From: Hyphomicrobiales bacterium
GTDB taxonomy: Bacteria; Pseudomonadota; Alphaproteobacteria; Rhizobiales; CAYWUX01
Reading direction: 5' to 3'
DNA length: 41,422 nt
Assembly (NCBI GenBank): GCA_028279265.1
Contig: JANQOC010000717.1
Coordinates: forward strand, 1-41,422
Shown: positions 1 to 41,422 of the stretch, one piece after another
Numbering within the stretch: the stretch's first letter is position 1
Layout of the letters: every line of letters begins with the position of its first letter
Program-made: the position numbers and the translations under genes
The notes under the pieces: model-generated
Seen by the model: the letters and a program-made list of their open reading frames with translations, nothing else
What the model was told of the DNA's origin: nothing
The model's database searches: none

Positions 1-99
1 CGTTGGAACGGCTACGGGCGGCAGCGGTTCTCTTACAAGCAGCATAACATCGCTTGGCAATGATTATTATTTAATAAAAATAACAGACACGCCGAATAA
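1..99. repeat. Terminal direct repeat, copy 1 (exact duplicate of 41324..41422); assembly overlap of a circular or circularly permuted genome
   Basis: Bases 1-99 (cgttggaacggctacggg...cacgccgaataa) recur exactly at 41324-41422. A long ORF reads across the junction in frame. Confidence 0.95.
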
Positions 100-2455
100 C
101 ACTGCGGGGCGTATGTACATCTTGTCAGCTACCGCAGATAATGTGGCTTCTCATAATGGCGGTGGTGTAAATGGATTTTATGGTTCGGCACCACAATTTA
201 GACTTACAAACTCCCCAGATGTTTACATAAAAAACACTGGTGTCGGTGCTACATACGCAGCACGCGGCGGTGATGCGGTCTACAAGCCTGTCCGACAGCT
301 TCTCGCCTATCCTGCCAACGCCAATAAAGGAACAGGTGTTCGCGCCACTGTTTCACCAGCGGACATTGACGGTCCCCGGGCCGATCTAAAAGGCGATAAG
401 ATCGTTGAGAATTCCGATCTAGCAACGACGCATTATATTGATTATGATTCTGTAAATGTCATGGCTGGTCAACATACGGGCCAAGCCCTCATGAAAGCCG
501 ATGAGCGCCGATGGATCAAAGCCGAATTCTTGACTTCCGGCGGCTATGCTTATTTTGACCTCACCGGCAAAGTCATCGGTACAACATCGGGCATCACCAA
601 AGCCCATATCATCAATGCCCCCAATGGTTATTACCGCATAGCGATTATAGATGATCTCGCGGCGGGAACTGAGACATTGCGCATTTCGCTTGCGGATAGT
701 GATGGCGGAGAAACCTATGACGGTGACGGGTCCAGCGGTGCGCACATTGCCATCGCCAATATTCAGCCCGGTGGCTTGAATGACTTTGTGGGTACGCGGA
801 ATTATATTCTCGATACAGATACTGATGGCGATAAGAATTTTAATGGATGGGCCAAGACGAATGCTGTTGTTACCGACGGCACTTTAGCGCCGGACGGCAG
901 TACAGATGCGGATACCCTAGCGGACGATAACAGTACAGGTACAGGAAACGTATCAGTATCGCGAACATTAACTTTCCCAAGTGCTGGAACTTATAGAGTT
1001 GGCGTTTTTATTCAGGCAAAACAGCTCAGTTGGGTTGCCTTGCGAGAGAATAATTTTGGCCTCGGCAATAACTATACGTTTTTTGACCTTGCAAATGGTG
1101 CAATCGGCGCAACCGACAATAATAGCAATTCGACCATAAAATATTGGGGCAATGGTTATTACATATGCTCATTTGAAATAACAGTATCGAGCGATTTAAC
1201 CGGTGCTTTCCAAATCTGGTTGGCAGATGCAGACAATGACCTAGTGGTTGATCTTGATGGCACGTCAGATGTGGTCGTATGGAATGCTTTTGCTCAACCC
1301 CTAGACCCAACCACCGGCCTTATGCAACCCCCCGTTGGCATGCCCCAAACAGCCTTTAAGCTGTCCGGATACCAAGGTGAGGGCGCGGCGACGAATATTT
1401 GCCCGGACTCTGAAGACCTTTCCAGTTGGACGAAATTCACGGTTGCAGATGTTATTGACACCAATGTTTACACTGCGGTTGATGGTGAAACTGTATTCGA
1501 CCGAGTGAATGTCGATGCCAGCGCCGGAATACACGGTGTCTTCAAAAACCTCACGACAACAGCCAATACAGATTATGTGCTTGCCAAAGATTTTAAGCCC
1601 GATGGCGCACGATATGTCTGGTTGAATTTATCTTCATCGACTGAGGATCACATATCCGTTCTCTATGACTTACTCGTCGGAATTGTTGTTGCCACCGATG
1701 TCGGAACAAGCTCGGGCACCATTGCTGATTATGGTGTTGAGTACAATATAGACGGTACATTGCGCTGTTGGATGGCCGGTCAAACCGCAGAAGCCAATTT
1801 AACGGCAGCAAGCGGTACGGCGGACAGCTCAACACCGACATGGGATGCGAGCGGACGTGTGTCACATACCCCGGCAGCGGGCGAAGACTATCTTGCTACA
1901 ATGGTTCAATGTGAAGCTGGGACGGAACCGACATCCTATATAAGAACGGGTTCGAGTTCTGAATCCAGAAGCGCAGACCTTCCCATAGACACAGATATTA
2001 GCTGGTTCAATCAAACCGAAGGTACATTTGTTATCAAGGGTTCGGTGAATCATGTAAACGGCAACGTTAAACAATTTGGGTCTGCGAATGACAACACGAC
2101 CTCAGAAAGGCATCAATTATTCGCAGACAATAGCGCAGCTTCAGCTCAATATACCGTTAGGGATGGGGGATCAGCTGTCGCAGACCTTAACGGATTAGGG
2201 ACAACAGTGTCTAAGGGCACCACCATGTTAGCCGCTGCCTATAAGGAAAATGATATAGCAGCTTGTCAGGATGGTGGGACTGTGAAAACAGACACAAGTA
2301 ATACGTTGCCGACAATAACTCAATTTGAATACGGTGTATCTGCTACTGGTGGAAATCCTTTGAATGGATCTATTGAATCGTTCGAATATTACAATACGCG
2401 TCTAACAGATGCTCAGCTTCAAGAGAAAACCCTTATCACCGAAACAGGACTATAG
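2..2455 (+). CDS. Modular fibre/adhesin-like virion protein, C-terminal part of a junction-spanning gene (~980 aa when 40836..41323 is joined to 1..2455)
   Basis: The frame of ATG 40836 continues through the overlap into the frame of track ORF 113..2455. It has repeated ~130-150-aa modules (W.KTN/W.ETN openings, F[DN]L..G..G, GNGYY/NGYYR/NDYYL motifs). The C-terminal ~190 aa is LamG/concanavalin-like (...SIESFEYYNTRLTDAQLQ). Confidence 0.75.
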   Translation, partial: VGTATGGSGSLTSSITSLGNDYYLIKITDTPNNTAGRMYILSATADNVASHNGGGVNGFYGSAPQFRLTNSPDVYIKNTGVGATYAARGGDAVYKPVRQLLAYPANANKGTGVRATVSPADIDGPRADLKGDKIVENSDLATTHYIDYDSVNVMAGQHTGQALMKADERRWIKAEFLTSGGYAYFDLTGKVIGTTSGITKAHIINAPNGYYRIAIIDDLAAGTETLRISLADSDGGETYDGDGSSGAHIAIANIQPGGLNDFVGTRNYILDTDTDGDKNFNGWAKTNAVVTDGTLAPDGSTDADTLADDNSTGTGNVSVSRTLTFPSAGTYRVGVFIQAKQLSWVALRENNFGLGNNYTFFDLANGAIGATDNNSNSTIKYWGNGYYICSFEITVSSDLTGAFQIWLADADNDLVVDLDGTSDVVVWNAFAQPLDPTTGLMQPPVGMPQTAFKLSGYQGEGAATNICPDSEDLSSWTKFTVADVIDTNVYTAVDGETVFDRVNVDASAGIHGVFKNLTTTANTDYVLAKDFKPDGARYVWLNLSSSTEDHISVLYDLLVGIVVATDVGTSSGTIADYGVEYNIDGTLRCWMAGQTAEANLTAASGTADSSTPTWDASGRVSHTPAAGEDYLATMVQCEAGTEPTSYIRTGSSSESRSADLPIDTDISWFNQTEGTFVIKGSVNHVNGNVKQFGSANDNTTSERHQLFADNSAASAQYTVRDGGSAVADLNGLGTTVSKGTTMLAAAYKENDIAACQDGGTVKTDTSNTLPTITQFEYGVSATGGNPLNGSIESFEYYNTRLTDAQLQEKTLITETGL

Positions 2456-2457
2456 TC

Positions 2458-3129
2458 ATGCAAATATATATTTTACAATATACGGATCGTGACGCCTTAG
2501 ATGCTGATTTAGTGAAGACTGGATTGGCAACATTCTCTGATCTCGACCCCGGTTCAATTGATGTCGATGTCAAAGTCCCGGTTGAGGTTGGGGGCCAAGT
2601 CCATGAGATCAAAACCGAGACACGGCAATTGTCCGCCGCCGACATTAACGCCAAACCAGACTTGGAGAATGAAGCGGCGACAATCAATTACAAGATTGAT
2701 AAGAACACGGCCCTGACTGCCCCAATGACCCACAAGCTGGAAAAGGTTCGCGTTGAAGATGACAGGCGAGCCACCTATCAGGTGTTCAAGTTCAACGACA
2801 AGGAATATCGGGTTCGCACCGGTGGCAAGCAGATGGTGAGGACCGCTCTTGCCAAGACACATGGTGTGAAGATTGATGATTTCCACCAAGGCCCAGACAC
2901 CGGATTTAAATTGGTCCAAACACCACACGTCGAAGATAAGGACGGGAACCGAATATCTGACCCGAAGCACGTTGATGGATATTTCGTATTCTGTGAAGTC
3001 CAAGACGACAAGTACAAACTGCCGCTAAAAATCCTTGACCCGACAAAATTAACTATCGATTGGACAAAGCAACACGGAAAAGCAAAGCAGGCGAATCAGT
3101 ATTGGCTGAATAATTTTGTCCGCGAATAG
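2458..3129 (+). CDS. Hypothetical protein (possible fibre accessory protein, by position only)
   Basis: Track ORF with its ATG 2 nt after the upstream stop. No recognisable motif. Confidence 0.6.
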   Translation: MQIYILQYTDRDALDADLVKTGLATFSDLDPGSIDVDVKVPVEVGGQVHEIKTETRQLSAADINAKPDLENEAATINYKIDKNTALTAPMTHKLEKVRVEDDRRATYQVFKFNDKEYRVRTGGKQMVRTALAKTHGVKIDDFHQGPDTGFKLVQTPHVEDKDGNRISDPKHVDGYFVFCEVQDDKYKLPLKILDPTKLTIDWTKQHGKAKQANQYWLNNFVRE

Positions 3130-3533: not shown

Positions 3534-4695
3534 TCTCTGGAACGCCGTGTTCTGGAACACCGAAGCTGCCCTAGGGGCGGATGTTTCACAGGATGTTTCA
3601 CGTGAAACATTACCGCCACCACCGGGAAGCGATCTCCCCGACAATGCCACAAAAAAGCAGGTAGATCAAAGCCTTGACGAAGCCTTGGGCGGTGTTTTCG
3701 ACAAGATGGAAGACCCGGAAGTGGATAAAGATCCGAAGGGGGAAGTTGAAAACGATGTCGAAATCGGCGCGAAAAAGGAAGATGAGAATGCAGCGAAGAA
3801 AGATGATTCGGATTCACAGCCTGAAGATGGCCAAGGCGTGGACAATCCTGACACAAAGAAAGTTGAAGCCCCGGAAGGATTGACGGCAAGCCAGAAGGAA
3901 GCCTGGGATAAACTGCCCGCTGAAGCCCAGGAACACGCTGCGGCGATCATTCGCGAGAGCAGTCAAAACCTGAATGACGCCACGACCTTCGCCAAGCCCT
4001 TCCTCGATATTTCAAACCAGTACAAGCATGTATTTGAAGCCAATGGGCTAAAACCCCATGAAGGCTTTGAGAAAATGATGGGGATCCAGCAAGCCCTGGA
4101 CACGGGAACGCCAGAACAAAGAGCGGCGAAGCTGATTGAAATCGCCAATCTCTATGGGGTTGATCTCGGGAAACATATCTATCCCGAACTGTCGGAAGTC
4201 TTCGGCGAAGATGTGAAGTTTTCAGGCCAGGACACGACCCAGGCGGATCCCAAGGTTGCAGCCCTGGAACAGACCATTCAAAACCTGGAAAAACGTCTGA
4301 ATGAACGCGAACAATCCGAACAGTCCCGGGAAAATAATCAGATCAGCGAAACCATTAAAGAGTTCAAGGCGGACAAGGAAAATTGGGACGAATTGGAAAA
4401 TGAAATCACGGCCCAGGTCCACGCGGTCCGCACCAATCACCCCAATCTGGGAACAAAGGAAGTTCTCGAAAAAGCCTATAAAAATGCTGTTTTCACCGAC
4501 GATAAGGCCCGCGCCGCGTACTTTGAAAAACAGGAAGCGGAGCGCAAGGCGAAACGGGAAGCGGAGTTAAAAGCTGAAGCTGAAAAAGCCAAAAAGGCAA
4601 ATTCTTTGAACATCGAATCGGATCCGTTGCATAAGGGTAAACCGCAGAGTTTGGATGAAGTTTTGTCATCCAAATATGATGAGATTACCAAGTAG
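3520..4695 (+). CDS. Scaffolding protein (putative)
   Basis: ATG 3520 (MKTFDLW...) lies inside track ORF 3454..4695. The protein is strongly acidic and Lys/Glu-rich with helical character, and ends 27 nt before the capsid gene, the classical scaffold position. Confidence 0.65.
   Translation: MKTFDLWNAVFWNTEAALGADVSQDVSRETLPPPPGSDLPDNATKKQVDQSLDEALGGVFDKMEDPEVDKDPKGEVENDVEIGAKKEDENAAKKDDSDSQPEDGQGVDNPDTKKVEAPEGLTASQKEAWDKLPAEAQEHAAAIIRESSQNLNDATTFAKPFLDISNQYKHVFEANGLKPHEGFEKMMGIQQALDTGTPEQRAAKLIEIANLYGVDLGKHIYPELSEVFGEDVKFSGQDTTQADPKVAALEQTIQNLEKRLNEREQSEQSRENNQISETIKEFKADKENWDELENEITAQVHAVRTNHPNLGTKEVLEKAYKNAVFTDDKARAAYFEKQEAERKAKREAELKAEAEKAKKANSLNIESDPLHKGKPQSLDEVLSSKYDEITK
3579..3610. repeat. 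GGATGTTTCAC x2 direct plus one inverted copy; includes the 18-bp perfect palindrome ATGTTTCACGTGAAACAT (3593..3610)
   Basis: Read directly: ggatgtttcac a ggatgtttcac gtgaaacat, inside the 5' end of the scaffold CDS. Confidence 0.9.
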
Positions 4696-6312: not shown

Positions 6313-7695
6313 ATGAACATGAAAACACAAGTTAAATTCAAAAGCGGTCTGAACACTTCGGAAGATGTATTTCTCGACAATACGCGGGCGAATATTGAGA
6401 AATACGGCCATTTAATCCCGACTTATTCCACGAAAAAGGCACTCATTTGTGGCGGCGGACCCAGCCTCGAAGACTGGATCGAGGAGATCCGTGATTTGAA
6501 AGATGCGGGCTGGACGATATTCGCGCTGAACGGGGTTGCCAGATATCTCTATGAAGAACACCAGATCATTTCCGACTGGCAGTTGGTGATTGACGCCAGG
6601 CCGGAGAATATAGAATTCATTGGCGATTTCTGGGCTGAAAATATCGCTTTGGGGTCACAAGTTGACCCCCAATTATTCGAAAAAGCCATTGCGAGTCAAT
6701 CGAATGTGGTCATGGTTCATTGCATGGCGGTCAAGGGAAGTCTTGATTTGATTCGCGAATTACACCCCGGTAACACGGTTTTGGGGGGTGGATCGACGGT
6801 CGGCATGATGGCCATGAATTTCATTTCGTCCGCCGGTTATGCCAAGGCGAAACTCTATGGATTTGATTCATCCCACCGGGAAGACAAAAAACACCCCTAC
6901 ACCCAGCCGTTGAACGAAGATCAGCCGGTGATTGATTTCATCTTCAATAAGCAATCGTTCAAATCATCCGGGCCGATGGCCTCACAAGCCCAACAGTTCA
7001 TCACCTATTGGAAGGTCTGGGCCAACAAGGGGCTCGAATTCGATATCAGGGGCGATGGACTACTTCCAACCATGTGGCGCTATGTCCAGGCCATTGAGGA
7101 ATTTGGATCCACCGAAGACCGGGAGCTGATCAAGTACGAAAAAGTCTGGCGCATGGACAATTACCGGAAATACTCACCCGGCGAAGACTTCTGGGATCAC
7201 TATCAGCATCACATCCCCCGGGACGCCAGAACTGTCGCTGATTTTGGCTGTGGAACCGGACGTATTGTCGCGAAAATCAACGAGTTGGGACCGGCTTACA
7301 TAGGGATCGATCACGCTACAAATTGTTTAGATGATGGAGCCAAGGATCTCATTGACACCCATCCCAATGAATTTATCCCGGCCAATCTCTGGCAATTCAA
7401 AGGACGCCTGTTTGACTTCGGGCTTTGTTGTGACGTGATGGAGCATATCCCCGCCTGGAAGATGGATGACACTCTTCAGGCGATTGCGCGATCCGTGCGG
7501 AAAGGCGCAATATTTACCATTTGTTGCGCCCCTGATGTCTTTGGGGAACGGGTCGGGGAAACTTTGCATATGAATGTGATGCCGCCGGATCAGTGGGTTG
7601 GGAGAATAGCTCTGCATTTTGGCTTTGCGGAAGAGATTTATGCCGAAGGCCCGAACGTGGTCATTGCGGCAAGAAAAGAGGGAACGGGATTATGA
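6313..7695 (+). CDS. Fusion protein: N-terminal DUF115/MptE-like (Maf-type glycosyl/nonulosonate transferase-like) domain plus C-terminal class I SAM-dependent methyltransferase
   Basis: N-terminal motifs: LICGGGPSL, IFALNG, DWQLVIDAR, GGGSTVGMMAMNFISSAGYAKAKLYGFD. C-terminal motifs: VADFGCGTGRIV (motif I) and LCCDVMEHIP. The start may be ATG 6319. Confidence 0.7.
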   Translation: MNMKTQVKFKSGLNTSEDVFLDNTRANIEKYGHLIPTYSTKKALICGGGPSLEDWIEEIRDLKDAGWTIFALNGVARYLYEEHQIISDWQLVIDARPENIEFIGDFWAENIALGSQVDPQLFEKAIASQSNVVMVHCMAVKGSLDLIRELHPGNTVLGGGSTVGMMAMNFISSAGYAKAKLYGFDSSHREDKKHPYTQPLNEDQPVIDFIFNKQSFKSSGPMASQAQQFITYWKVWANKGLEFDIRGDGLLPTMWRYVQAIEEFGSTEDRELIKYEKVWRMDNYRKYSPGEDFWDHYQHHIPRDARTVADFGCGTGRIVAKINELGPAYIGIDHATNCLDDGAKDLIDTHPNEFIPANLWQFKGRLFDFGLCCDVMEHIPAWKMDDTLQAIARSVRKGAIFTICCAPDVFGERVGETLHMNVMPPDQWVGRIALHFGFAEEIYAEGPNVVIAARKEGTGL

Positions 7696-10937: not shown

Positions 10938-11458
10938 TCCTCACCGCAGATCGATCAAAAGAGGTGGCCGAATGGGTCCAAAAAAGATGTGGGGGCGAAT
11001 TCACTTTACCCGTGGGCGTTTATCAAACCCTTGCGCTGATCGACAGGGACGAAATCGTCGCCGGCACAATCTGGTTCGCCTACACGGACACAGATATTTC
11101 CCTGTCATTAGCCGTCAAGTCCGGAACGATGATCCGCCGCGCAGTTGTGCATGATGCCTTTCATTATCCTTTCGTGCAACTGAACTGCAACCGGGTCAGC
11201 GCAGAAGTTTTGTCATCGAATCGAAAATGCCTAAAGATATTAAAAATTCTAGGTTTCCAGCGTGAAGGGATAAAGCGGGAGGCCGGCCCGGATGGTGAAG
11301 ATGTCGAGATCTGGGGATTGTTGAAAAGCGATTTTGCGCGGAAAGGTTTCACCTATGAAAGCCCCATCCCAGCCAAAAGCCCCGGACGCAAGAGCCACAG
11401 CCGCGGCCGATCAGGCGGGCAATGTGGGCACGGCTATAGCCCAAACGGCGCTCAATAA
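10934..11458 (+). CDS. GNAT-fold (RimJ/RimL-like) acetyltransferase-like protein
   Basis: TTG start overlapping the upstream stop (TTGA). C-terminal GNAT-like pattern NRVSAEVLSSNRKCLKILKILGFQREGIKREAGPDGEDVEIWGLLKSDF. The last ~100 nt overlap the next gene. Confidence 0.5.
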   Translation: MILTADRSKEVAEWVQKRCGGEFTLPVGVYQTLALIDRDEIVAGTIWFAYTDTDISLSLAVKSGTMIRRAVVHDAFHYPFVQLNCNRVSAEVLSSNRKCLKILKILGFQREGIKREAGPDGEDVEIWGLLKSDFARKGFTYESPIPAKSPGRKSHSRGRSGGQCGHGYSPNGAQ

Positions 11459-18262: not shown

Positions 18263-18317
18263 AATTTTATCCGCGAATCGTTTCTGAATAAGGTTTCCCG
18301 GAACAAGCGGGGAACTC

Positions 18318-20766: not shown

Positions 20767-20795
20767 AATATAGCACATATGAACCATAAGTTCAA
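20767..20795 (-). promoter_or_regulatory. Sigma70-type promoter TTGAAC-N17-TATATT for the moron gene, overlapping the dyad TGAAC-N5-GTTCA
   Basis: The minus strand reads TTGAACttatggttcatatgtgcTATATT. -35 is at 20795..20790 and -10 at 20772..20767. Confidence 0.6.
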
Positions 20796-20800
20796 GAGTA

Positions 20801-20846
20801 AATAAAAGAAATCCCCAGGTCCAGTTCAGCGAAACCTGGGGATTTC
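20801..20846 (-). terminator. Rho-independent terminator after the OMP gene
   Basis: Perfect 13-bp stem gaaatccccaggt/acctggggatttc, followed on the minus strand by TTTTATTT. Confidence 0.85.
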
Positions 20847-20872: not shown

Positions 20873-21445
20873 TTAGAAATTCGCTCCGGCGCGATACATA
20901 AACCGATCCTCACTTGGATCCGCGCCCATTATGGTTTCGTAATCCCAATGCTGCCATTCCGGCCCGTGGAAGATATTCCCGGACTGGAACTTGGCCCCGA
21001 GGCCATAAATCAAAGCATCAATCTCGGGTCCGCCTTTAACGCCTTGGCGGCCAACACCGACAAGACCATGGACGGAAGCTGAATCGCTCAACTGAATCCC
21101 GAAGATCCCAACACCATAGTAATAATCGTCCAGCTCAACCCCAAAGCCTTCTGCGCCGTTGAGGCCGTAGGCAATCCGGCCGCCCAGGATAATGGCACCG
21201 CCGGTTTGGAGCGTACATTCGCCGAAGATTTCGCCGGCCAGGCCGTCGCCGCCCAGATTACCGCCGCCAATATCAACATCGGCATTTGAGCGACCGCCGG
21301 CAGCACCAACGCCACAGCCCTGGAAGACACCCAAGAATTTCGGTGTTTCGTCTGCCTTAACTTCTTTTGGCCCGCCAAGATCGGCAGCCATTACAGTAGA
21401 GGCCGCGAATACCACCGCCCCGAGTACCGTCAATAGTCGTTTCAT
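20873..21445 (-). CDS. Outer-membrane beta-barrel protein (OmpA-like barrel / Omp25 / Ail-Lom type) with a signal peptide
   Basis: MKRLLTVLGAVVFAASTVMA|ADL signal peptide, alternating Gly/aromatic beta-strand pattern, and terminal ...FMYRAGANF, the C-terminal Phe beta-signal. SD aggggac. Confidence 0.8.
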   Translation of the reverse strand: MKRLLTVLGAVVFAASTVMAADLGGPKEVKADETPKFLGVFQGCGVGAAGGRSNADVDIGGGNLGGDGLAGEIFGECTLQTGGAIILGGRIAYGLNGAEGFGVELDDYYYGVGIFGIQLSDSASVHGLVGVGRQGVKGGPEIDALIYGLGAKFQSGNIFHGPEWQHWDYETIMGADPSEDRFMYRAGANF

Positions 21446-21461
21446 GAGTAGTCCCCTAAGT

Positions 21462-21485
21462 TGATTCGAATCATTCAACCGAATC
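21462..21485. promoter_or_regulatory. Cluster of three GANTC sites, including the 12-bp palindrome TGATTCGAATCA, in the OMP gene leader/promoter
   Basis: GATTC at 21463, GAATC at 21468, GAATC at 21481. Palindrome at 21462..21473. Confidence 0.6.
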
Positions 21486-21550
21486 TACATATCTGATTTG
21501 CTCAGAAAACTTGTGGTTTATACGTCACACGTTAACCTTTTCCCCCGAAA

Positions 21551-21589
21551 TAAAAACCCCGCCTTTGACCACGTTCCCGGGCGCGGGGC
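21551..21589 (-). terminator. Possible terminator ending the leftward early operon
   Basis: The minus strand reads ccccgc...(22 nt)...gcgggg followed by TTTTTATTT. The stem is short and the loop long. Confidence 0.4.
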
Positions 21590-22462: not shown

Positions 22463-22632
22463 AACTTTCCCTTTTGCTTATCCTTCAGGGCTCGCCAGAT
22501 CATTCGCGCCTTCGCCGGATCAACTTTTCGCGTAGCTCGGAAGTTGATTGCCAACTGCTTGCGCTGGGCCGCGATTTCCGGGATGGCTTTATATTCCCGG
22601 TACATGGTTTCCGTGGGAATGTGCTTTTTCAT
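22459..22632 (-). CDS. Small basic protein (57 aa), translationally coupled to the recombinase
   Basis: Hand-translated: MKKHIPTETMYREYKAIPEIAAQRKQLAINFRATRKVDPAKARMIWRALKDKQKGKL. Its ATG overlaps the recombinase TGA (ATGA). Confidence 0.55.
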   Translation of the reverse strand: MKKHIPTETMYREYKAIPEIAAQRKQLAINFRATRKVDPAKARMIWRALKDKQKGKL

Positions 22633-23252
22633 GTTTCTAAAACACTTCTTTCAAAACGTTTGTAGGTTTTTCCGTTTCCCACCTCTTCGGATGTTAAACT
22701 ATTCCGTTTCAAAAAGCGCCATAGGGTTGAGCGGGAAACGCCGACTATTTTTGCAATATCGGATAAACCGGTATCTGCTTCCAAAAGCTGGATGACGGCC
22801 CGCTGTTTATCGAGCGTCATGGCCGCCGGCCGGCCGAATTTTGCCCCGCGCTGCCGGGCCGCCGCCAGTCCGGCCTGAATTCGCTCGTTTGTCATTTCGC
22901 GCTCGAACTCGGACAAGATCATCAGAAGGTTAAACATCAACTTGCCGGTCGCCGTCTGAGTGTCGATCTTTTCCTTCAGGCTTTCGAACTCGATACAGTT
23001 CTCCCGAAAGTGGTCGGTCAACTTCAAAAGGTCTCGAAGGGATCGAGCCAATCGGTCCAATTTCCAGACAATGATTTTATCGCCAGGCTTGACCTTCTTC
23101 AGCATCTTGTTTAGCTCTTTGCGGTCTTTCGTATATCGACCGCTGAACTTGTCTGTAAAGATTTCGTCACAGTCGGCAGCCTTCAGGGCGTCAATCTGAA
23201 GATCCAGCCGTTGATCTTCGGTGGATACGCGGGCGTAGCCATATACAGTCAT
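22629..23252 (-). CDS. Small serine recombinase (resolvase/invertase family)
   Basis: YGYARVSTEDQ (catalytic Ser), GDKIIVWKLDRLARS, and the C-terminal HTH DIAKIVGVSRSTLWRFLKR. 207 aa. Confidence 0.9.
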   Translation of the reverse strand: MTVYGYARVSTEDQRLDLQIDALKAADCDEIFTDKFSGRYTKDRKELNKMLKKVKPGDKIIVWKLDRLARSLRDLLKLTDHFRENCIEFESLKEKIDTQTATGKLMFNLLMILSEFEREMTNERIQAGLAAARQRGAKFGRPAAMTLDKQRAVIQLLEADTGLSDIAKIVGVSRSTLWRFLKRNSLTSEEVGNGKTYKRFERSVLET

Positions 23253-23494: not shown

Positions 23495-23744
23495 CGATCC
23501 CAGCGCGCAAAATCGATTCCGCTTTTTCAGGGCTTGTGTGAATTTCAAATTCGCTAGCCAAGCTTATGACATCGCAGACCGTCAAATGTTCTTCGGCGGT
23601 GCCTGATATATTCCAGGTTTCCTTCATAAAGGCTTGGCCATGGGATATTCCAACAATTTTACTTACCGTGTAATTGTCGGGATCGGTATATCCTAGTGCC
23701 TTTAAAAATTCAGTATCGATTGATTCGTGAGTAGGTTGAGACAT
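23475..23744 (-). CDS. Hypothetical protein
   Basis: ATG 23744 with SD aagagg 6 nt upstream (MSQPTHESIDTEF...). Confidence 0.6.
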   Translation of the reverse strand: MSQPTHESIDTEFLKALGYTDPDNYTVSKIVGISHGQAFMKETWNISGTAEEHLTVCDVISLASEFEIHTSPEKAESILRAGIDETNED

Positions 23745-25072: not shown

Positions 25073-25082
25073 AAGTGATCCT

Positions 25083-25193
25083 CTATAAAATCGGTTGTCG
25101 AAGTTCATAGAGCCAAATACCAGCAACAAGAATGGACCATAAGATAAGAATCACAATAACAGAGATCGCGATTCGTGTAAACCACTTGTTCAT
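25083..25193 (-). CDS. Mini membrane peptide (36 aa)
   Basis: Hand-translated: MNKWFTRIAISVIVILILWSILVAGIWLYELRQPIL. Its ATG overlaps the upstream stop (ATGA). Confidence 0.5.
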   Translation of the reverse strand: MNKWFTRIAISVIVILILWSILVAGIWLYELRQPIL

Positions 25194-28203: not shown

Positions 28204-28236
28204 AGTCCTATCCTCTAAGTTTCAGCAACAGGTGAA

Positions 28237-28265
28237 CCATAAGTTTATTCGCGGACTAATGTCAA
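28237..28265 (-). promoter_or_regulatory. Promoter candidate TTGACA-N17/18-TTATGGT for the Gp157/recT operon, overlapping the 13-mer motif
   Basis: The minus strand reads cccTTGACAttagtccgcgaataaacTTATGGTtcacc, directly after terminator 28279..28312. Confidence 0.5.
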
Positions 28266-28388: not shown

Positions 28389-28676
28389 TTAGTTCATGGG
28401 AAGAGATTCTTCGTTTGATTTTCTGGCGGTTGGGCTCACTTCTCTAGGATTAAAAACGGACTTGACAAAAAACATTTCCACTTCTTCCAAATGGGTTTTT
28501 GCTAAGGAAGACCAGCGCAACCGCCGTCCATCGGATTGTAATTTTTCAAAATCTTCAATTTGCGCTTTTATTCTAGCGATATCGATTTTAAAATTGTTGA
28601 CTAGGTCCACATGGCCTTGGCTTTGAGGCTTATAGCCTTCCACGGGAAGAGCTGCATGTTCGGTTTCGTCTGTCAT
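28389..28676 (-). CDS. Small helical-hairpin protein, Acb2-like (cyclic-oligonucleotide sponge) candidate
   Basis: ATG 28676: MTDETEHAALPVEGYKPQSQGHVDLVNNFK...LRWSSLAKTHLEEVEMFFVKSVFNP. The G-Y...(15 aa)...K spacing and the W..(A)KT..E....F..(R/K)..F.P tail match my recollection of the Acb2 family. Not verified. Confidence 0.4.
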   Translation of the reverse strand: MTDETEHAALPVEGYKPQSQGHVDLVNNFKIDIARIKAQIEDFEKLQSDGRRLRWSSLAKTHLEEVEMFFVKSVFNPREVSPTARKSNEESLPMN

Positions 28677-29049
28677 TTTGCTTGATAGCCTTTCTGATAA
28701 GTTGTGTTGCCCGCCAGCGCCACCAAGCGGTGCCAACACGTTGACTTCCCAAGTAAGTGGCGCCGGAAACAGTAGACCAATTGATCAAGTGGACGATGTA
28801 GTTTCCATACCTATCGTCGTGGTGGGCGACACCGTAAACATATCGAACACCATCTTCGCGGAACCATTGAATTCTCGGATTAGGTTTGAGAAGGTCGAAT
28901 ATAGCCATAGGTAAATAATTTAAATCTATTTGCATATGTGCCTGACGGGCGATTGATTGATTCGCAACGAAAACTCCACCATCTGCAAAGACAAACATAT
29001 GGTTGAAGAATGCCCGCCAGGTCTTGACGTTGATAAACTGTTCGTTCAT
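28630..29049 (-). CDS. Hypothetical protein divergent from the Cro-like gene (start uncertain)
   Basis: ATG 29049 (MNEQFINVKTW...). Upstream of it the track ORF is antisense to the Cro-like gene and Cys/His/Arg-rich. Alternative starts at 28998 and 28935. Confidence 0.45.
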   Translation of the reverse strand: MNEQFINVKTWRAFFNHMFVFADGGVFVANQSIARQAHMQIDLNYLPMAIFDLLKPNPRIQWFREDGVRYVYGVAHHDDRYGNYIVHLINWSTVSGATYLGSQRVGTAWWRWRATQLIRKAIKQNDRRNRTCSSSRGRL

Positions 29050-29060
29050 AGAATGCAACC

Positions 29061-29306
29061 ATGAAAAAAGAAAATGTGAAAAACGTCCGACAGCTTGTGA
29101 ATTATCTCGGTGGTGATGATGAGTTATCGGACAGATTATCGAATGCCGGCATGCGTATCTCCAAGCAGGGCGTTCGCAAGTGGATATATTTGGGCAACAT
29201 TCCCCTGAAATGGTGGCCCTTCCTTTGTGACTATGGGGATTTTTCAATTGACGAGATGTACCAAATCGTTTTACGCAGCAAGAAAGTGAAGTCTTTAGCT
29301 GCCTAA
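29061..29306 (+). CDS. Cro / YdaS-like HTH regulator
   Basis: ...SDRLSNAGMRISKQGVRKWIYLGNIPLKWWPFLCDYGDFSIDEMY fits the YdaS/Cro-type HTH pattern (vs.qaV.kW...g.iP). It is the first rightward gene. Confidence 0.65.
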   Translation: MKKENVKNVRQLVNYLGGDDELSDRLSNAGMRISKQGVRKWIYLGNIPLKWWPFLCDYGDFSIDEMYQIVLRSKKVKSLAA

Positions 29307-29360: not shown

Positions 29361-29738
29361 ATGCAGGAAACAAAGTGGAAACCCCATATTTTCAATGCTG
29401 CCAAGCGTATGTGGCTCGACGGACGGTCGGGTCAGTATATTGCTTTGCAATTAGGGAATGGGCTGTCATCGTCGGCCGTTGTCTCAAAAATGAACCGGGA
29501 AGGCCTGGCCAGGGATCCGGCAAAACGGATTAAGAAAAAACGGGTTTATGATCCCGCCAAATACGTCAAGAAAAAGCGTTATGTTACCCCGGATCCCTGG
29601 GTCATTCCAAAGCGCCCCCGCCATGCTCGGGGCAAGCACGCTAGTTCCGAGTGGTATAAGAATTGTAATTTCGCTTTTGCTCAAAAGATGGCCCGCGCGG
29701 GTTATCTGCCGGTGTTTCCAGACTGGGTTTATGCATGA
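29361..29738 (+). CDS. GcrA-like cell-cycle regulator N-terminal domain protein
   Basis: W(K)PHIFNAAKRMWLDGRSGQYIALQLGNGLSSSAVVSKMNREGLAR aligns with the GcrA N-domain W.....LkklW.eG.SasqIA..LG.gvSRnAViGKvhRlGL. The C-terminus is not GcrA-like. Confidence 0.6.
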   Translation: MQETKWKPHIFNAAKRMWLDGRSGQYIALQLGNGLSSSAVVSKMNREGLARDPAKRIKKKRVYDPAKYVKKKRYVTPDPWVIPKRPRHARGKHASSEWYKNCNFAFAQKMARAGYLPVFPDWVYA

Positions 29739-32593: not shown

Positions 32594-32608
32594 AAAACTT
32601 ATGGTTCA
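32594..32608 (+). promoter_or_regulatory. Third copy of the 13-mer AACTTATGGTTCA, 17 nt upstream of ATG 32625
   Basis: Exact match to the reverse complements of 20780..20792 and 28233..28245. It has the same orientation relative to its downstream gene. Confidence 0.6.
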
Positions 32609-36977: not shown

Positions 36978-38520
36978 CTGGTTCTGGCGCCTCAACAATC
37001 TCTATTGGATCCTGGACAAGGAAGGTCGTGAAGTTCCGTTCATCCTGAATGATGAACAGATCGATTTTTACGAGAATATCCACACATTGAATGTCATTTT
37101 GAAGGCCCGCCAGCTTGGGTTCTCAACGTTTATTGCCATGTTCATGCTGGATAGCTGTCTTTTCGAGGAAAATGTCAATTGCGGGATTATCGATGTCACG
37201 TTACCGGATGCCAAGCGCAAACTGGAAAAGATTAAGTTCGCCTATGACCGCCTGGATCCACATATTCAGGCTGCGGTTCCCATTGAACGGGCCTCGACCC
37301 AGGAAATCATCTGGGCGAATGGCTCCACAATCAGCGTAGGAACGTCACACAGAGGCGGAACGCTTCAATATCTCCATATATCCGAATTCGGCAAGATCTG
37401 CGCCACACGCCCCGATAAGGCCCGGGAAATCATTACCGGGGCCTTGAACACCGTCCAGGCCGGACAGTTCATTGCCATTGAATCGACAGCCGAGGGCCAG
37501 GAAGGCCGGTTTTATGACATCTGCCAGACCGCCCAGACCCTAAAGCGGATCGGAAAAACCTTAACGGATCTCGACTTCAAGTTTTTCTTTTATCCCTGGT
37601 GGACCCGGGATGAATACAAACTTTACGACGATCAGGTACCGATCACGGATGAATTCAAAACATATTTCAACAAGCTGGAAGGCCAAATCGGTCAAGAATT
37701 ATCCCTGGAACAGAAAGTTTGGTACGTCAAAAAGCAGGAAGTCCAGCAAGATGATATGAAGCGCGAGTTTCCCGGGACGCCGGAAGAGGCGTTCGAAGCT
37801 TCTGTTGAGGGGGCGATATTTGGGAAACAAATGGAGGCCGCGGAATTTGAGGGGCGAATTGGCAGATATCCAGCCATTCCGGGTATTCCGGTCAATTCCT
37901 TCTGGGACATAGGTCGTCGGGATTATAATTCCATTTGGTTTGCCCAGATCATCATGGGGCCGTTCATTCGTGTGGTCGGGTTTTATCAGAATTGTATGTA
38001 TGGCCTGCCTCATTATGCAGAATATTGCTCAAATCTCTATCAGGAAAAGGGCTGGGAACATGGCGAAGACTATTTTCCCCATGACATCAAGGTCACTGAA
38101 TGGGGCACGGATCGAACCCGGATTGAGATGGCTATTTCGCACGGTTTTAATGCTGTCAAGGCACCAACTCTGGATCTTCAGGATGGGATTAACGCCGGTC
38201 GAGCCACGATCCCGATTTGTTATTTTGATGAGGAGGGGTGTGGCGATGGGATCAGAGTCCTGAAGTCCTACCGCTGGGAATGGGATGATATACGGGGCGC
38301 CTGGAAAACTAATGTTCCCCGCCATGATGAAAACTCTCATGGGGGCGATGCCTGGCGAACCCTTGGCGTGTCCTGGCGGGAAATCACCCCCGAACTTGAC
38401 CCTGGCCCGCGGCGTGACGAACTTGTTTTGTCCGCGAATCGGGATGGGTCTATAACGACGAACATGTCTGTTCGCGAGATCATCGAAGCGAAAGCAAGAA
38501 AAAAACGACGGAACCGGTAA
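36931..38520 (+). CDS. terL: Terminase large subunit
   Basis: ILKARQLGFSTF (Terminase_6-type ATPase motif), 529 aa, followed by the portal gene. The start is GTG 36931 or TTG 36970. Confidence 0.85.
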   Translation: MSQQEKVASLEDQLNDWFWRLNNLYWILDKEGREVPFILNDEQIDFYENIHTLNVILKARQLGFSTFIAMFMLDSCLFEENVNCGIIDVTLPDAKRKLEKIKFAYDRLDPHIQAAVPIERASTQEIIWANGSTISVGTSHRGGTLQYLHISEFGKICATRPDKAREIITGALNTVQAGQFIAIESTAEGQEGRFYDICQTAQTLKRIGKTLTDLDFKFFFYPWWTRDEYKLYDDQVPITDEFKTYFNKLEGQIGQELSLEQKVWYVKKQEVQQDDMKREFPGTPEEAFEASVEGAIFGKQMEAAEFEGRIGRYPAIPGIPVNSFWDIGRRDYNSIWFAQIIMGPFIRVVGFYQNCMYGLPHYAEYCSNLYQEKGWEHGEDYFPHDIKVTEWGTDRTRIEMAISHGFNAVKAPTLDLQDGINAGRATIPICYFDEEGCGDGIRVLKSYRWEWDDIRGAWKTNVPRHDENSHGGDAWRTLGVSWREITPELDPGPRRDELVLSANRDGSITTNMSVREIIEAKARKKRRNR

Positions 38521-40835: not shown

Positions 40836-41422
40836 ATGCTGGTTCAACCAGGAAAATTGATGACGGCAGCGCAGTTGAGCGGGGGGACGCCAGCGGCGTT
40901 CAGTGCCAATTTTAAAACCCTACCCCTGTCAAGCACGGGCTGGTTCCAAGGGCTGGACGGAACTTTTTTCCGCACCTCTCCTGCAAGGCAGTTCAATATT
41001 AATGGGGAGCTGGAGTACGCAGCGCATAATTTTCACACATATACCGAGAATTGGGAAGATGCTGGATGGACGGAAACCAATGGCACGTTGACCGCTGCAC
41101 CTTCTGAAACAGTCCCTGGATACGATGCCTCGGTTTCCTTATTCACAGAAGGGACAGACACGGCAGTCGAGCATTCTATCGGTGTTAGCTCAACATTCGT
41201 TATTCCTACAGATCAATCGGTTACCGCTCAAATCCTTTTGAAAGCAAACGTAAATGATCATGTTCGAATTGCTATTTTTGCGTTCACAAATTATCAGGGA
41301 TATTTCAATATCTCATCCGGTAGCGTTGGAACGGCTACGGGCGGCAGCGGTTCTCTTACAAGCAGCATAACATCGCTTGGCAATGATTATTATTTAATAA
41401 AAATAACAGACACGCCGAATAA
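40836..41422 (+). CDS. N-terminal part of the junction-spanning fibre/adhesin-like gene (continues at base 100)
   Basis: ATG at 40836, 5 nt after the upstream stop. The frame is open to the contig end with no stop (MLVQPGKLMTAAQLSGG...WTETNGTLTAAP...GNDYYLIKITDTPN). It is missing from the ORF track only because it has no stop in the window. Confidence 0.75.
   Translation, partial: MLVQPGKLMTAAQLSGGTPAAFSANFKTLPLSSTGWFQGLDGTFFRTSPARQFNINGELEYAAHNFHTYTENWEDAGWTETNGTLTAAPSETVPGYDASVSLFTEGTDTAVEHSIGVSSTFVIPTDQSVTAQILLKANVNDHVRIAIFAFTNYQGYFNISSGSVGTATGGSGSLTSSITSLGNDYYLIKITDTPN
41324..41422. repeat. Terminal direct repeat, copy 2 (exact duplicate of 1..99)
   Basis: Identical 99-mer at both contig ends. 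Confidence 0.95.

Follow-up and report, generated by a model that had tools for sequence, protein, structure and literature searches.

What reads a cluster of three GANTC sites that stands directly before an orphan outer-membrane protein (OMP) gene on a phage contig? The window analyzed here is the whole 41,422-nucleotide stretch JANQOC010000717.1 (assembly GCA_028279265.1, Hyphomicrobiales bacterium), which is the entire contig C617 within a 765-contig, ~4-Mb metagenome-assembled genome (MAG). We tentatively read the cluster as the promoter or leader of a phage cargo gene (a moron) that would be read by the CcrM and GcrA proteins of the host, and assign this reading a probability of roughly 40%. 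The original prediction, made from the letters of the window, had placed three GANTC sites at 21463, 21468, and 21481 and a 12-bp palindrome 17–28 nt upstream of the OMP start, and a letter-by-letter check bears out each of these positions: GATTC (21463–21467), GAATC (21468–21472), and GAATC (21481–21485) fall within 23 bp, and the palindrome lies 17–28 nt upstream of the minus-strand start codon (ATG, 21445–21443). The elements concerned are as follows.

20873..21445, minus strand: orphan 190-aa OMP gene, in frame with the open reading frame (ORF) 20873..21478
21457–21452, minus strand: Shine-Dalgarno sequence AGGGGA, 6 nt before the ATG at 21445
21462–21473: perfect 12-bp palindrome TGATTCGAATCA, composed of two abutting GANTC sites
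21462–21468, plus strand, and 21473–21467, minus strand: exact TGATTCG (YGAKTCG) GcrA boxes, one per palindrome half
21480–21486, minus strand: third GANTC site, AGATTCG, a 6/7 match to the GcrA box, overlapping a -10-like hexamer
21487–21482, minus strand: -10-like TAGATT, from which a start near 21475 is predicted from sequence

The sites are more than bare methylation targets. GcrA prefers the extended context TGATTCG, within a broader YGAKTCK (Haakonsen et al., PMC4647560), and YGAKTCG has also been reported (Wu et al., PMC9976885). What is new here is that the palindrome consists of two copies of TGATTCG, that CcrM and GcrA are both encoded in full in the bin, and that TGATTCG is the most intergenic GANTC context in the MAG. 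The host-side half of the original interpretation, which tied the cluster to CcrM methylation, is plausible, and it fits the known consensus more closely than that prediction realized.

CcrM is represented in the MAG by a single PF01555 gene (227 bits) that adjoins an RNase HII-like ORF (translation read by eye) and whose 367-aa product matches Caulobacter CcrM (PDB 6PBD) over residues 16–362 with E = 1.8e-155. GcrA is encoded on contig C712 (PF07750, 183.6 bits) and keeps VSRNAVIGKVHRLGL together with R33, N34, I37, G38, K39, H41, and R42; it agrees with Caulobacter GcrA at every DNA- or methyl-reading residue, and in the Caulobacter protein R33, N34, I37, and G38 recognize the bases and both methyl groups (PMC5887438). 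The C-terminal part of the MAG protein contains three cysteines and a histidine in CCCH order, as seen by eye rather than by alignment to Caulobacter GcrA. Judged by these similarities, the bin encodes a full CcrM writer and a full GcrA reader; the original prediction had been staked on a host that possesses CcrM, and the copy in the bin is full length. Among the 32 NGANTCN classes in the MAG, TGATTCG is the most intergenic, with 26.6% of its copies outside long ORFs compared with 12.3% of all GANTC (P = 8e-10), and it looks like a regulatory word in this lineage. Two features expected of a GcrA promoter are found together: the extended box context, and CcrM with a full GcrA in the presumed host (presumed through binning).

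The gene that follows the cluster appears to be a self-contained unit. Its 190-aa product begins with a signal peptide (...FAASTVMA/AD), and its C-terminal end is ...YRAGANF; no direct Pfam or PHROG match was found for it, and its weak relatives (E = 1e-4 to 6e-4) themselves match PF13505 (OMP_b-brl) or OmpA_membrane, so that the product is probably a small outer-membrane beta-barrel of the Omp25/31 type. A single-sequence AlphaFold2 (AF2) model was useless here (predicted local distance difference test, pLDDT, 34). The gene is bracketed by two hairpins.

20801–20846, minus strand: strong intrinsic terminator with a ~16-17-bp stem and a U-run, directly 3' of the OMP gene
21552–21589, minus strand: terminator-like hairpin (GCCCCGC...GCGGGG) with U5, found by eye, 50 nt past the stop of the upstream gene

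The downstream terminator is predicted at -34.1 kcal/mol (z = -5.5), and 0 of 200 shuffles were as stable; a 101-nt fold around the upstream hairpin gives z = 0.03 against shuffles, and this hairpin is absent from the list of the terminator scan. Because putative terminators stand on both sides, the OMP promoter and leader would be confined to 21446–21551 (105 nt). With these flanking terminators and a deviating GC content (58%, vs. 50% for the phage), the OMP gene is a predicted moron. The lambda morons lom and bor are autonomous promoter-gene-terminator cassettes for small outer-membrane proteins located by the tail/lysis end of the genome. The proteins of such cassettes are expressed independently of the phage program. 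The OMP cassette is like them in its apparent autonomy of expression, in its position near the tail and lysis end, and in its predicted small outer-membrane product, and differs from them in that this product is an orphan of an Omp25/31-like type. To our knowledge, control by a host methylation reader is undescribed for the lom and bor cassettes.

We hypothesize that the cluster forms the regulatory core of this independently transcribed, orphan beta-barrel moron. Host CcrM would methylate all three GANTC sites, and a host GcrA-sigma70-RNA polymerase complex would load via the methylated boxes on an otherwise poor promoter, in the manner of Caulobacter PmipZ; the OMP gene would thereby be expressed in step with the methylation state of the host and the S-phase window of GcrA, and the third site, on the -10, may add direct methylation sensitivity. 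A GcrA-like protein encoded by the phage is probably not needed in this scheme and, if bound here, would more likely compete with GcrA. The promoter core is indeed poor: the original prediction had described TAGATT, overlapped by the third site, as lacking a good -35, which holds for the hexamers 16–18 bp 5' of it (TTTTCT, GTTTTC, and AGTTTT, all poor -35 elements), and a consensus promoter scan of the OMP upstream stretch reported no promoter.

The closest likeness is to PmipZ of Caulobacter crescentus, where near-consensus methylatable boxes lie by the start of a promoter with a weak core (PMC4647560, PMC5887438, PMC9976885). The PmipZ boxes lie at +4 and +12 (PMC9976885), and given TAGATT as the putative -10, the box centers of the phage would lie at ~+6 and ~+11, with the third site at ~-8. 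Unlike promoters of the PmipZ type, the phage boxes abut as a palindrome, a third site falls on the putative -10, and the gene that would be served is a cargo gene and not a cell-cycle gene. A further likeness is to the repABC/repE and ddl-ftsQAZ promoters of Agrobacterium tumefaciens, where several GANTC sites also stand together in an alphaproteobacterium with CcrM and GcrA, where GcrA binding is strictly methylation-dependent (a promoter probe with three GANTC sites is bound only when methylated), and where GcrA activates or represses (PMC13687562). Those promoters differ from the phage cluster in serving chromosomal or replicon-maintenance genes, in having experimental support, and in the spacing and position of their sites. 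Should our reading be correct, a phage cargo gene would be plugged into the epigenetic cell-cycle circuit of Alphaproteobacteria, synthesis of a prophage surface protein would be restricted to a defined part of the host cycle or to methylated templates, the concept of the CcrM/GcrA regulon would extend to mobile elements, and the locus would offer a compact natural test promoter with two back-to-back consensus boxes and a site on the -10.

Several observations weigh against a promoter read by host GcrA. The choice of TAGATT as the -10 of the OMP gene is a guess, and from the alternative -10 TATAAA (21522–21517) the sites would lie at +28, +41, and +46, with only the third in range; in GcrA-regulated promoters the usual site positions are about -20 (or -30) and the stretch +2 to +30, with hardly any over the -10 (PMC4647560), the place to which TAGATT assigns the third site. 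The promoter region has no relatives, and conservation of the sites hence has no support; likewise, no relatives of the OMP protein or of its upstream neighbor were found in IMG/VR, INPHARED, or a set of 5.8 billion proteins. The assignment to the host is one of metagenomic binning, and no sequence link was found between the phage contig and the other contigs of the MAG. The idea that the moron copies the regulation of a host OMP gene was rejected, as the best Omp25/31-type gene of the MAG (its best PF13505 match) has 0 GANTC in the 250 nt upstream; a second, weaker match lies at a contig end, and its upstream region is cut off there. To these points belong the genome-wide counts and the dyad symmetry of the boxes, both of which bear on alternatives considered below.

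Whether the cluster is a coincidence depends on how GANTC is distributed. The window contains 57 sites (~1 per 727 bp), where base composition predicts 161, an order-3 Markov model 126, and dinucleotide shuffles ~200, and GANTC is the most depleted of the 16 NNxNN palindromes. Within coding sequences (CDS), 42 sites are observed versus 92.5 +/- 7.2 in synonymous-codon shuffles of 42 genes (z ~ -7), and the depletion is therefore selective rather than a by-product of codon usage. When 57 sites are placed uniformly, a triple within 23 bp arises somewhere with a probability of 0.017–0.020; the other 15 palindromes have no triple with P below 0.06, and shuffles of the 194-bp intergenic stretch give P ~0.0004–0.0007 for an equally tight triple. 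The original prediction had proposed that GANTC density at this point is exceptional, and for the phage the full count and the clustering test (P ~0.02) agree. The same prediction had noted no GANTC in the other intergenic regions scanned by eye, which is nearly right: the site at 18275 is intergenic, and those at 23722, 25148, 25170, 35561, and 36414 fall outside a crude ORF set, yet inside short ORFs on closer reading. Across the 4-Mb MAG, however, tight triples (start-span <=30) number 31 versus ~30 expected at random placement, and abutting GANTC pairs number 24 versus ~26; the triple cluster is unusual for the phage, not for a bacterial genome. We conclude that the cluster is real and moderately, not overwhelmingly, improbable by chance.

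It is somewhat unlikely, in our estimation, that the sites co-occur without regulatory meaning while the OMP promoter uses other elements. In favor of such a coincidence, a Bonferroni correction of the window-wide P over the 16 palindromes raises it to ~0.3, the cluster was spotted by eye while scanning for a favored motif, triples and abutting pairs occur in the MAG at the random rates given above, and the 27-nt site arrangement is absent from all viral and metagenome contigs searched. A proposed preference of GcrA boxes for positions ahead of gene starts (curated starts, P = 0.0008) was also rejected as not robust, as the signal was lost with an objective, greedy ORF list (6/18, P = 0.3; Mann-Whitney 0.06–0.5). 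Conversely, selection against GANTC of the strength found here makes three survivors in 23 bp hard to attribute to drift, both abutting sites bear the full 7-bp GcrA consensus, and this cluster accounts for three of the phage's four unambiguously intergenic GANTC sites.

The symmetry of the boxes raises a different alternative, namely that TGATTCGAATCA is an operator for a dimeric phage or host protein (for example, a repressor at +2..+13), with GANTC incidental to it or serving to sensitize it to methylation. The perfect 12-bp dyad falls where a roadblock classically sits, past the likely start and ahead of the Shine-Dalgarno sequence, and the plasmid protein TraM reads paired GANTC motifs outside the CcrM/GcrA system; both points count for an operator. 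GcrA itself acts as a monomer, and most GcrA promoters have one box (PMC9976885), making dyad symmetry needless for a GcrA-read promoter, whereas the 12-bp palindrome suggests a dimeric binder. The phage nevertheless has no second or near copy of the palindrome (the best others have 3 mismatches, 23 vs. 28 expected), and its recurrent control words, a 13-mer and a 16-mer described below, are different. The single other copy in the MAG (contig C379:532, locus L023) lies ~175 nt upstream of recA and may be meaningless, as ~0.24 copies are expected by chance on our own estimate. On balance, an operator of this kind is unlikely. As a separate observation, the ORF upstream of the recA-side copy ends in an apparent response-regulator receiver domain (by eye). 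Two other functions of the upstream region were also considered: a fold of 21425–21500 is no more stable than shuffles (z = +1.0) and thus lends no support to a leader RNA hairpin, and an invertible segment, suggested by a small serine recombinase gene (22629–23252) and a gix-like AAACC..GGTTT (21504–21525), was rejected when no inverted-repeat partner was found.

The remaining candidate reader is encoded by the phage, and the original prediction had wired the moron to it as well as to host CcrM.

29361..29738, plus strand: 125-aa protein; residues ~4–49 form a GcrA-type DNA-binding domain (DBD), followed by a basic, disordered remainder with a helix at the C-terminus

This protein scores 24.4 bits against PF07750 (cut-off 26.9; model positions 3–56 of 155) and matches the GcrA DBD structure PDB 5YIU with a phmmer E-value of 6.4e-5. 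Its AF2 model contains a three-helix N-terminal domain (pLDDT ~78–85 at residues 11–50), for which the top three Foldseek matches are GcrA structures, including 5YIV at a target-normalized TM-score of 0.89 and a root-mean-square deviation of 1.2 A. At the positions that read the bases and N6-methyladenine, it carries R33S, N34S, I37V, and G38S (S37, S38, V41, and S42 in its own numbering), and it retains the equivalents of W3, W15, S20, K39, and R42. There is one cysteine in its 125 residues, with no CCCH sigma70-interacting domain and no counterpart to the C-terminus of host GcrA; lacking that domain, the protein would be unable to serve as a sigma70 cofactor. By its predicted fold, the product of 29361..29738 is a GcrA-DBD-fold protein and not a GcrA, and its DNA specificity probably differs from that of GcrA. 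The proposed wiring to this protein is hence the part of the original prediction that finds no support: the reading residues are replaced, and the sigma70-binding zinc finger is missing.

It could still be argued that the protein binds the three sites as a decoy or competitor of host GcrA, in a lytic shut-off of the moron, or as an activator by an unspecified route. The confident fold, the contact residues that are kept, and the position of the gene, which is early and adjoins an immunity-type region, are consistent with some such role. Replacement of R33, N34, and G38, which read GANTC and its methyl groups (PMC5887438), together with the missing sigma70-interacting domain, argues the other way, and no homologues from which a target motif could be derived were found in IMG/VR, INPHARED, or the 5.8-billion-protein set; we regard binding of this protein to the cluster as quite unlikely. 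GcrA-similar genes are known from other alphaproteobacterial phages, such as gp222 of phiCbK and its relatives (PMC3556154) and ORF4/5 of a brucellaphage (PMC11836647); unlike the protein described here, those of phiCbK are full PF07750 members. A GcrA relative reduced to its DBD would be a candidate for a natural factor that antagonizes or re-targets GcrA. Upstream of the gene, a possible early promoter facing rightward occupies positions 29020–29063: TTGACG and, beyond a 19-nt spacer, TAGAAT, which stops 6 nt short of the ATG of an 81-aa gene (29061..29306). Its transcript would have little or no leader, and the GcrA-like gene comes second after it.

A broader interpretation would have the whole phage written for the methylation reader of its host, with GANTC purged outside GcrA contexts, CGAATCG embedded in a 16-mer ahead of the genes for the portal, lysis, an internal protein, and the capsid, and the DBD-only GcrA relative redirecting or blocking host GcrA-RNA polymerase. 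Both the timing of phage genes and the expression of the cargo would then be gated by host CcrM methylation. We consider this a long shot. In exploratory analyses, the GANTC purge does spare GcrA-consensus contexts: under synonymous shuffles of the CDS, box contexts number 9 versus 13.1 expected (TGATTCG alone, 5 vs. 4.4) and non-box contexts 33 versus 79.4 (P = 0.02 for the box fraction), with observed-to-expected ratios of ~0.26–0.42 for non-box GANTC and ~0.7 for boxes. TGATTCG is the commonest NGANTCN class in the phage (10/57 = 17.5%, vs. 2.4% in the MAG), an excess with P = 0.0015 against an order-2 model and 0.014 when the palindrome is left out. In three relatives identified through the capsid protein, the observed-to-expected ratios of GANTC are 0.80, 0.16, and 0.19, so that avoidance is frequent, not universal, in the capsid clade; neither the box bias nor the 16-mer was found in these three, and none (0/3) of the fetched loci shares either the OMP region or its GANTC motifs.

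The 16-mer TTTTGTCCGCGAATCG occurs in four copies with <=2 mismatches and a looser fifth, all on the late-gene (plus) strand.

3114–3129, 4605–4620, 11208–11223, 18265–18280, and 38426–38441, plus strand: copies of the 16-mer

These copies lie 53–126 nt before gene starts, with -10-like words 16–18 nt after TTGTCC, and the word is late-promoter-like. Four of the five contain a CGAATCG box, the copy at 3114 having GAATAG; the center of the GANTC would fall near -24, which matches neither known position class of GcrA sites. A back-of-the-envelope calculation, assuming uniform base composition, puts the family-wise chance of a four-copy 16-mer at ~0.04. Matches to the 16-mer in IMG/VR, on eight contigs unrelated to the phage, were dismissed as chance.

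A second recurrent word, the 13-mer AACTTATGGTTCA, has three exact copies and three with 2 mismatches, six versus 0.8 expected.

20780–20792, 28233–28245, and 32596–32608: exact copies of the 13-mer
21508–21520, 25133–25145, and 28994–29006: weaker copies of the 13-mer
21508–21520, plus strand (opposite to the OMP gene): the 2-mismatch copy nearest the cluster, centered ~38 nt upstream of the putative start

The relevance of the copy at 21508–21520 to the OMP gene is uncertain. The copy at 20780 occupies the spacer after a TTGAAC -35.

The contig as a whole is probably a complete circular or permuted phage genome, because a frame with an open 3' end (40836..41420) runs in phase into one with an open 5' end (2..2455); the end-spanning frame (40836–41422 plus 1–2455) encodes a tail/adhesin-like protein (phrog_5939). 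Other phage genes include the small and large terminase, portal, major capsid protein, tail, tail-fiber, and amidase genes, as well as RecT, a Mu Gam-like gene, and the recombinase mentioned above. Relatives of the capsid at 60–73% identity form a large uncultured clade (loci L020-L022, proteins P0006-P0124), one of them from a Xanthobacteraceae MAG, and relatives of the portal occur in Brucella, Rhizobium, Bradyrhizobium, and Ruegeria phages, with a distant kinship to the portals of Brucella podophages; an alphaproteobacterial host would fit both sets. A profile search found no DNA methyltransferase of the N6_N4 type on the phage contig, and the methyltransferase domain in 6313–7695 was rejected as a DNA methylase, being a class I S-adenosylmethionine enzyme fused to an MptE-like domain.

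Two small minus-strand genes were also noted. An ORF of ~37 aa (MNKWFTRIAISVIVILILWSILVAGIWLYELRQPIL; ~25079–25192), with a GGGGGG ribosome-binding site and a single transmembrane helix, holds two GANTC sites 22 bp apart (25148 and 25170). A 95-aa early protein (28389–28676) matches Pfam PF24729 (Acb2/Tad1 hairpin domain; 42.7 bits, cut-off 27) and is likely an anti-CBASS/Thoeris nucleotide sponge.

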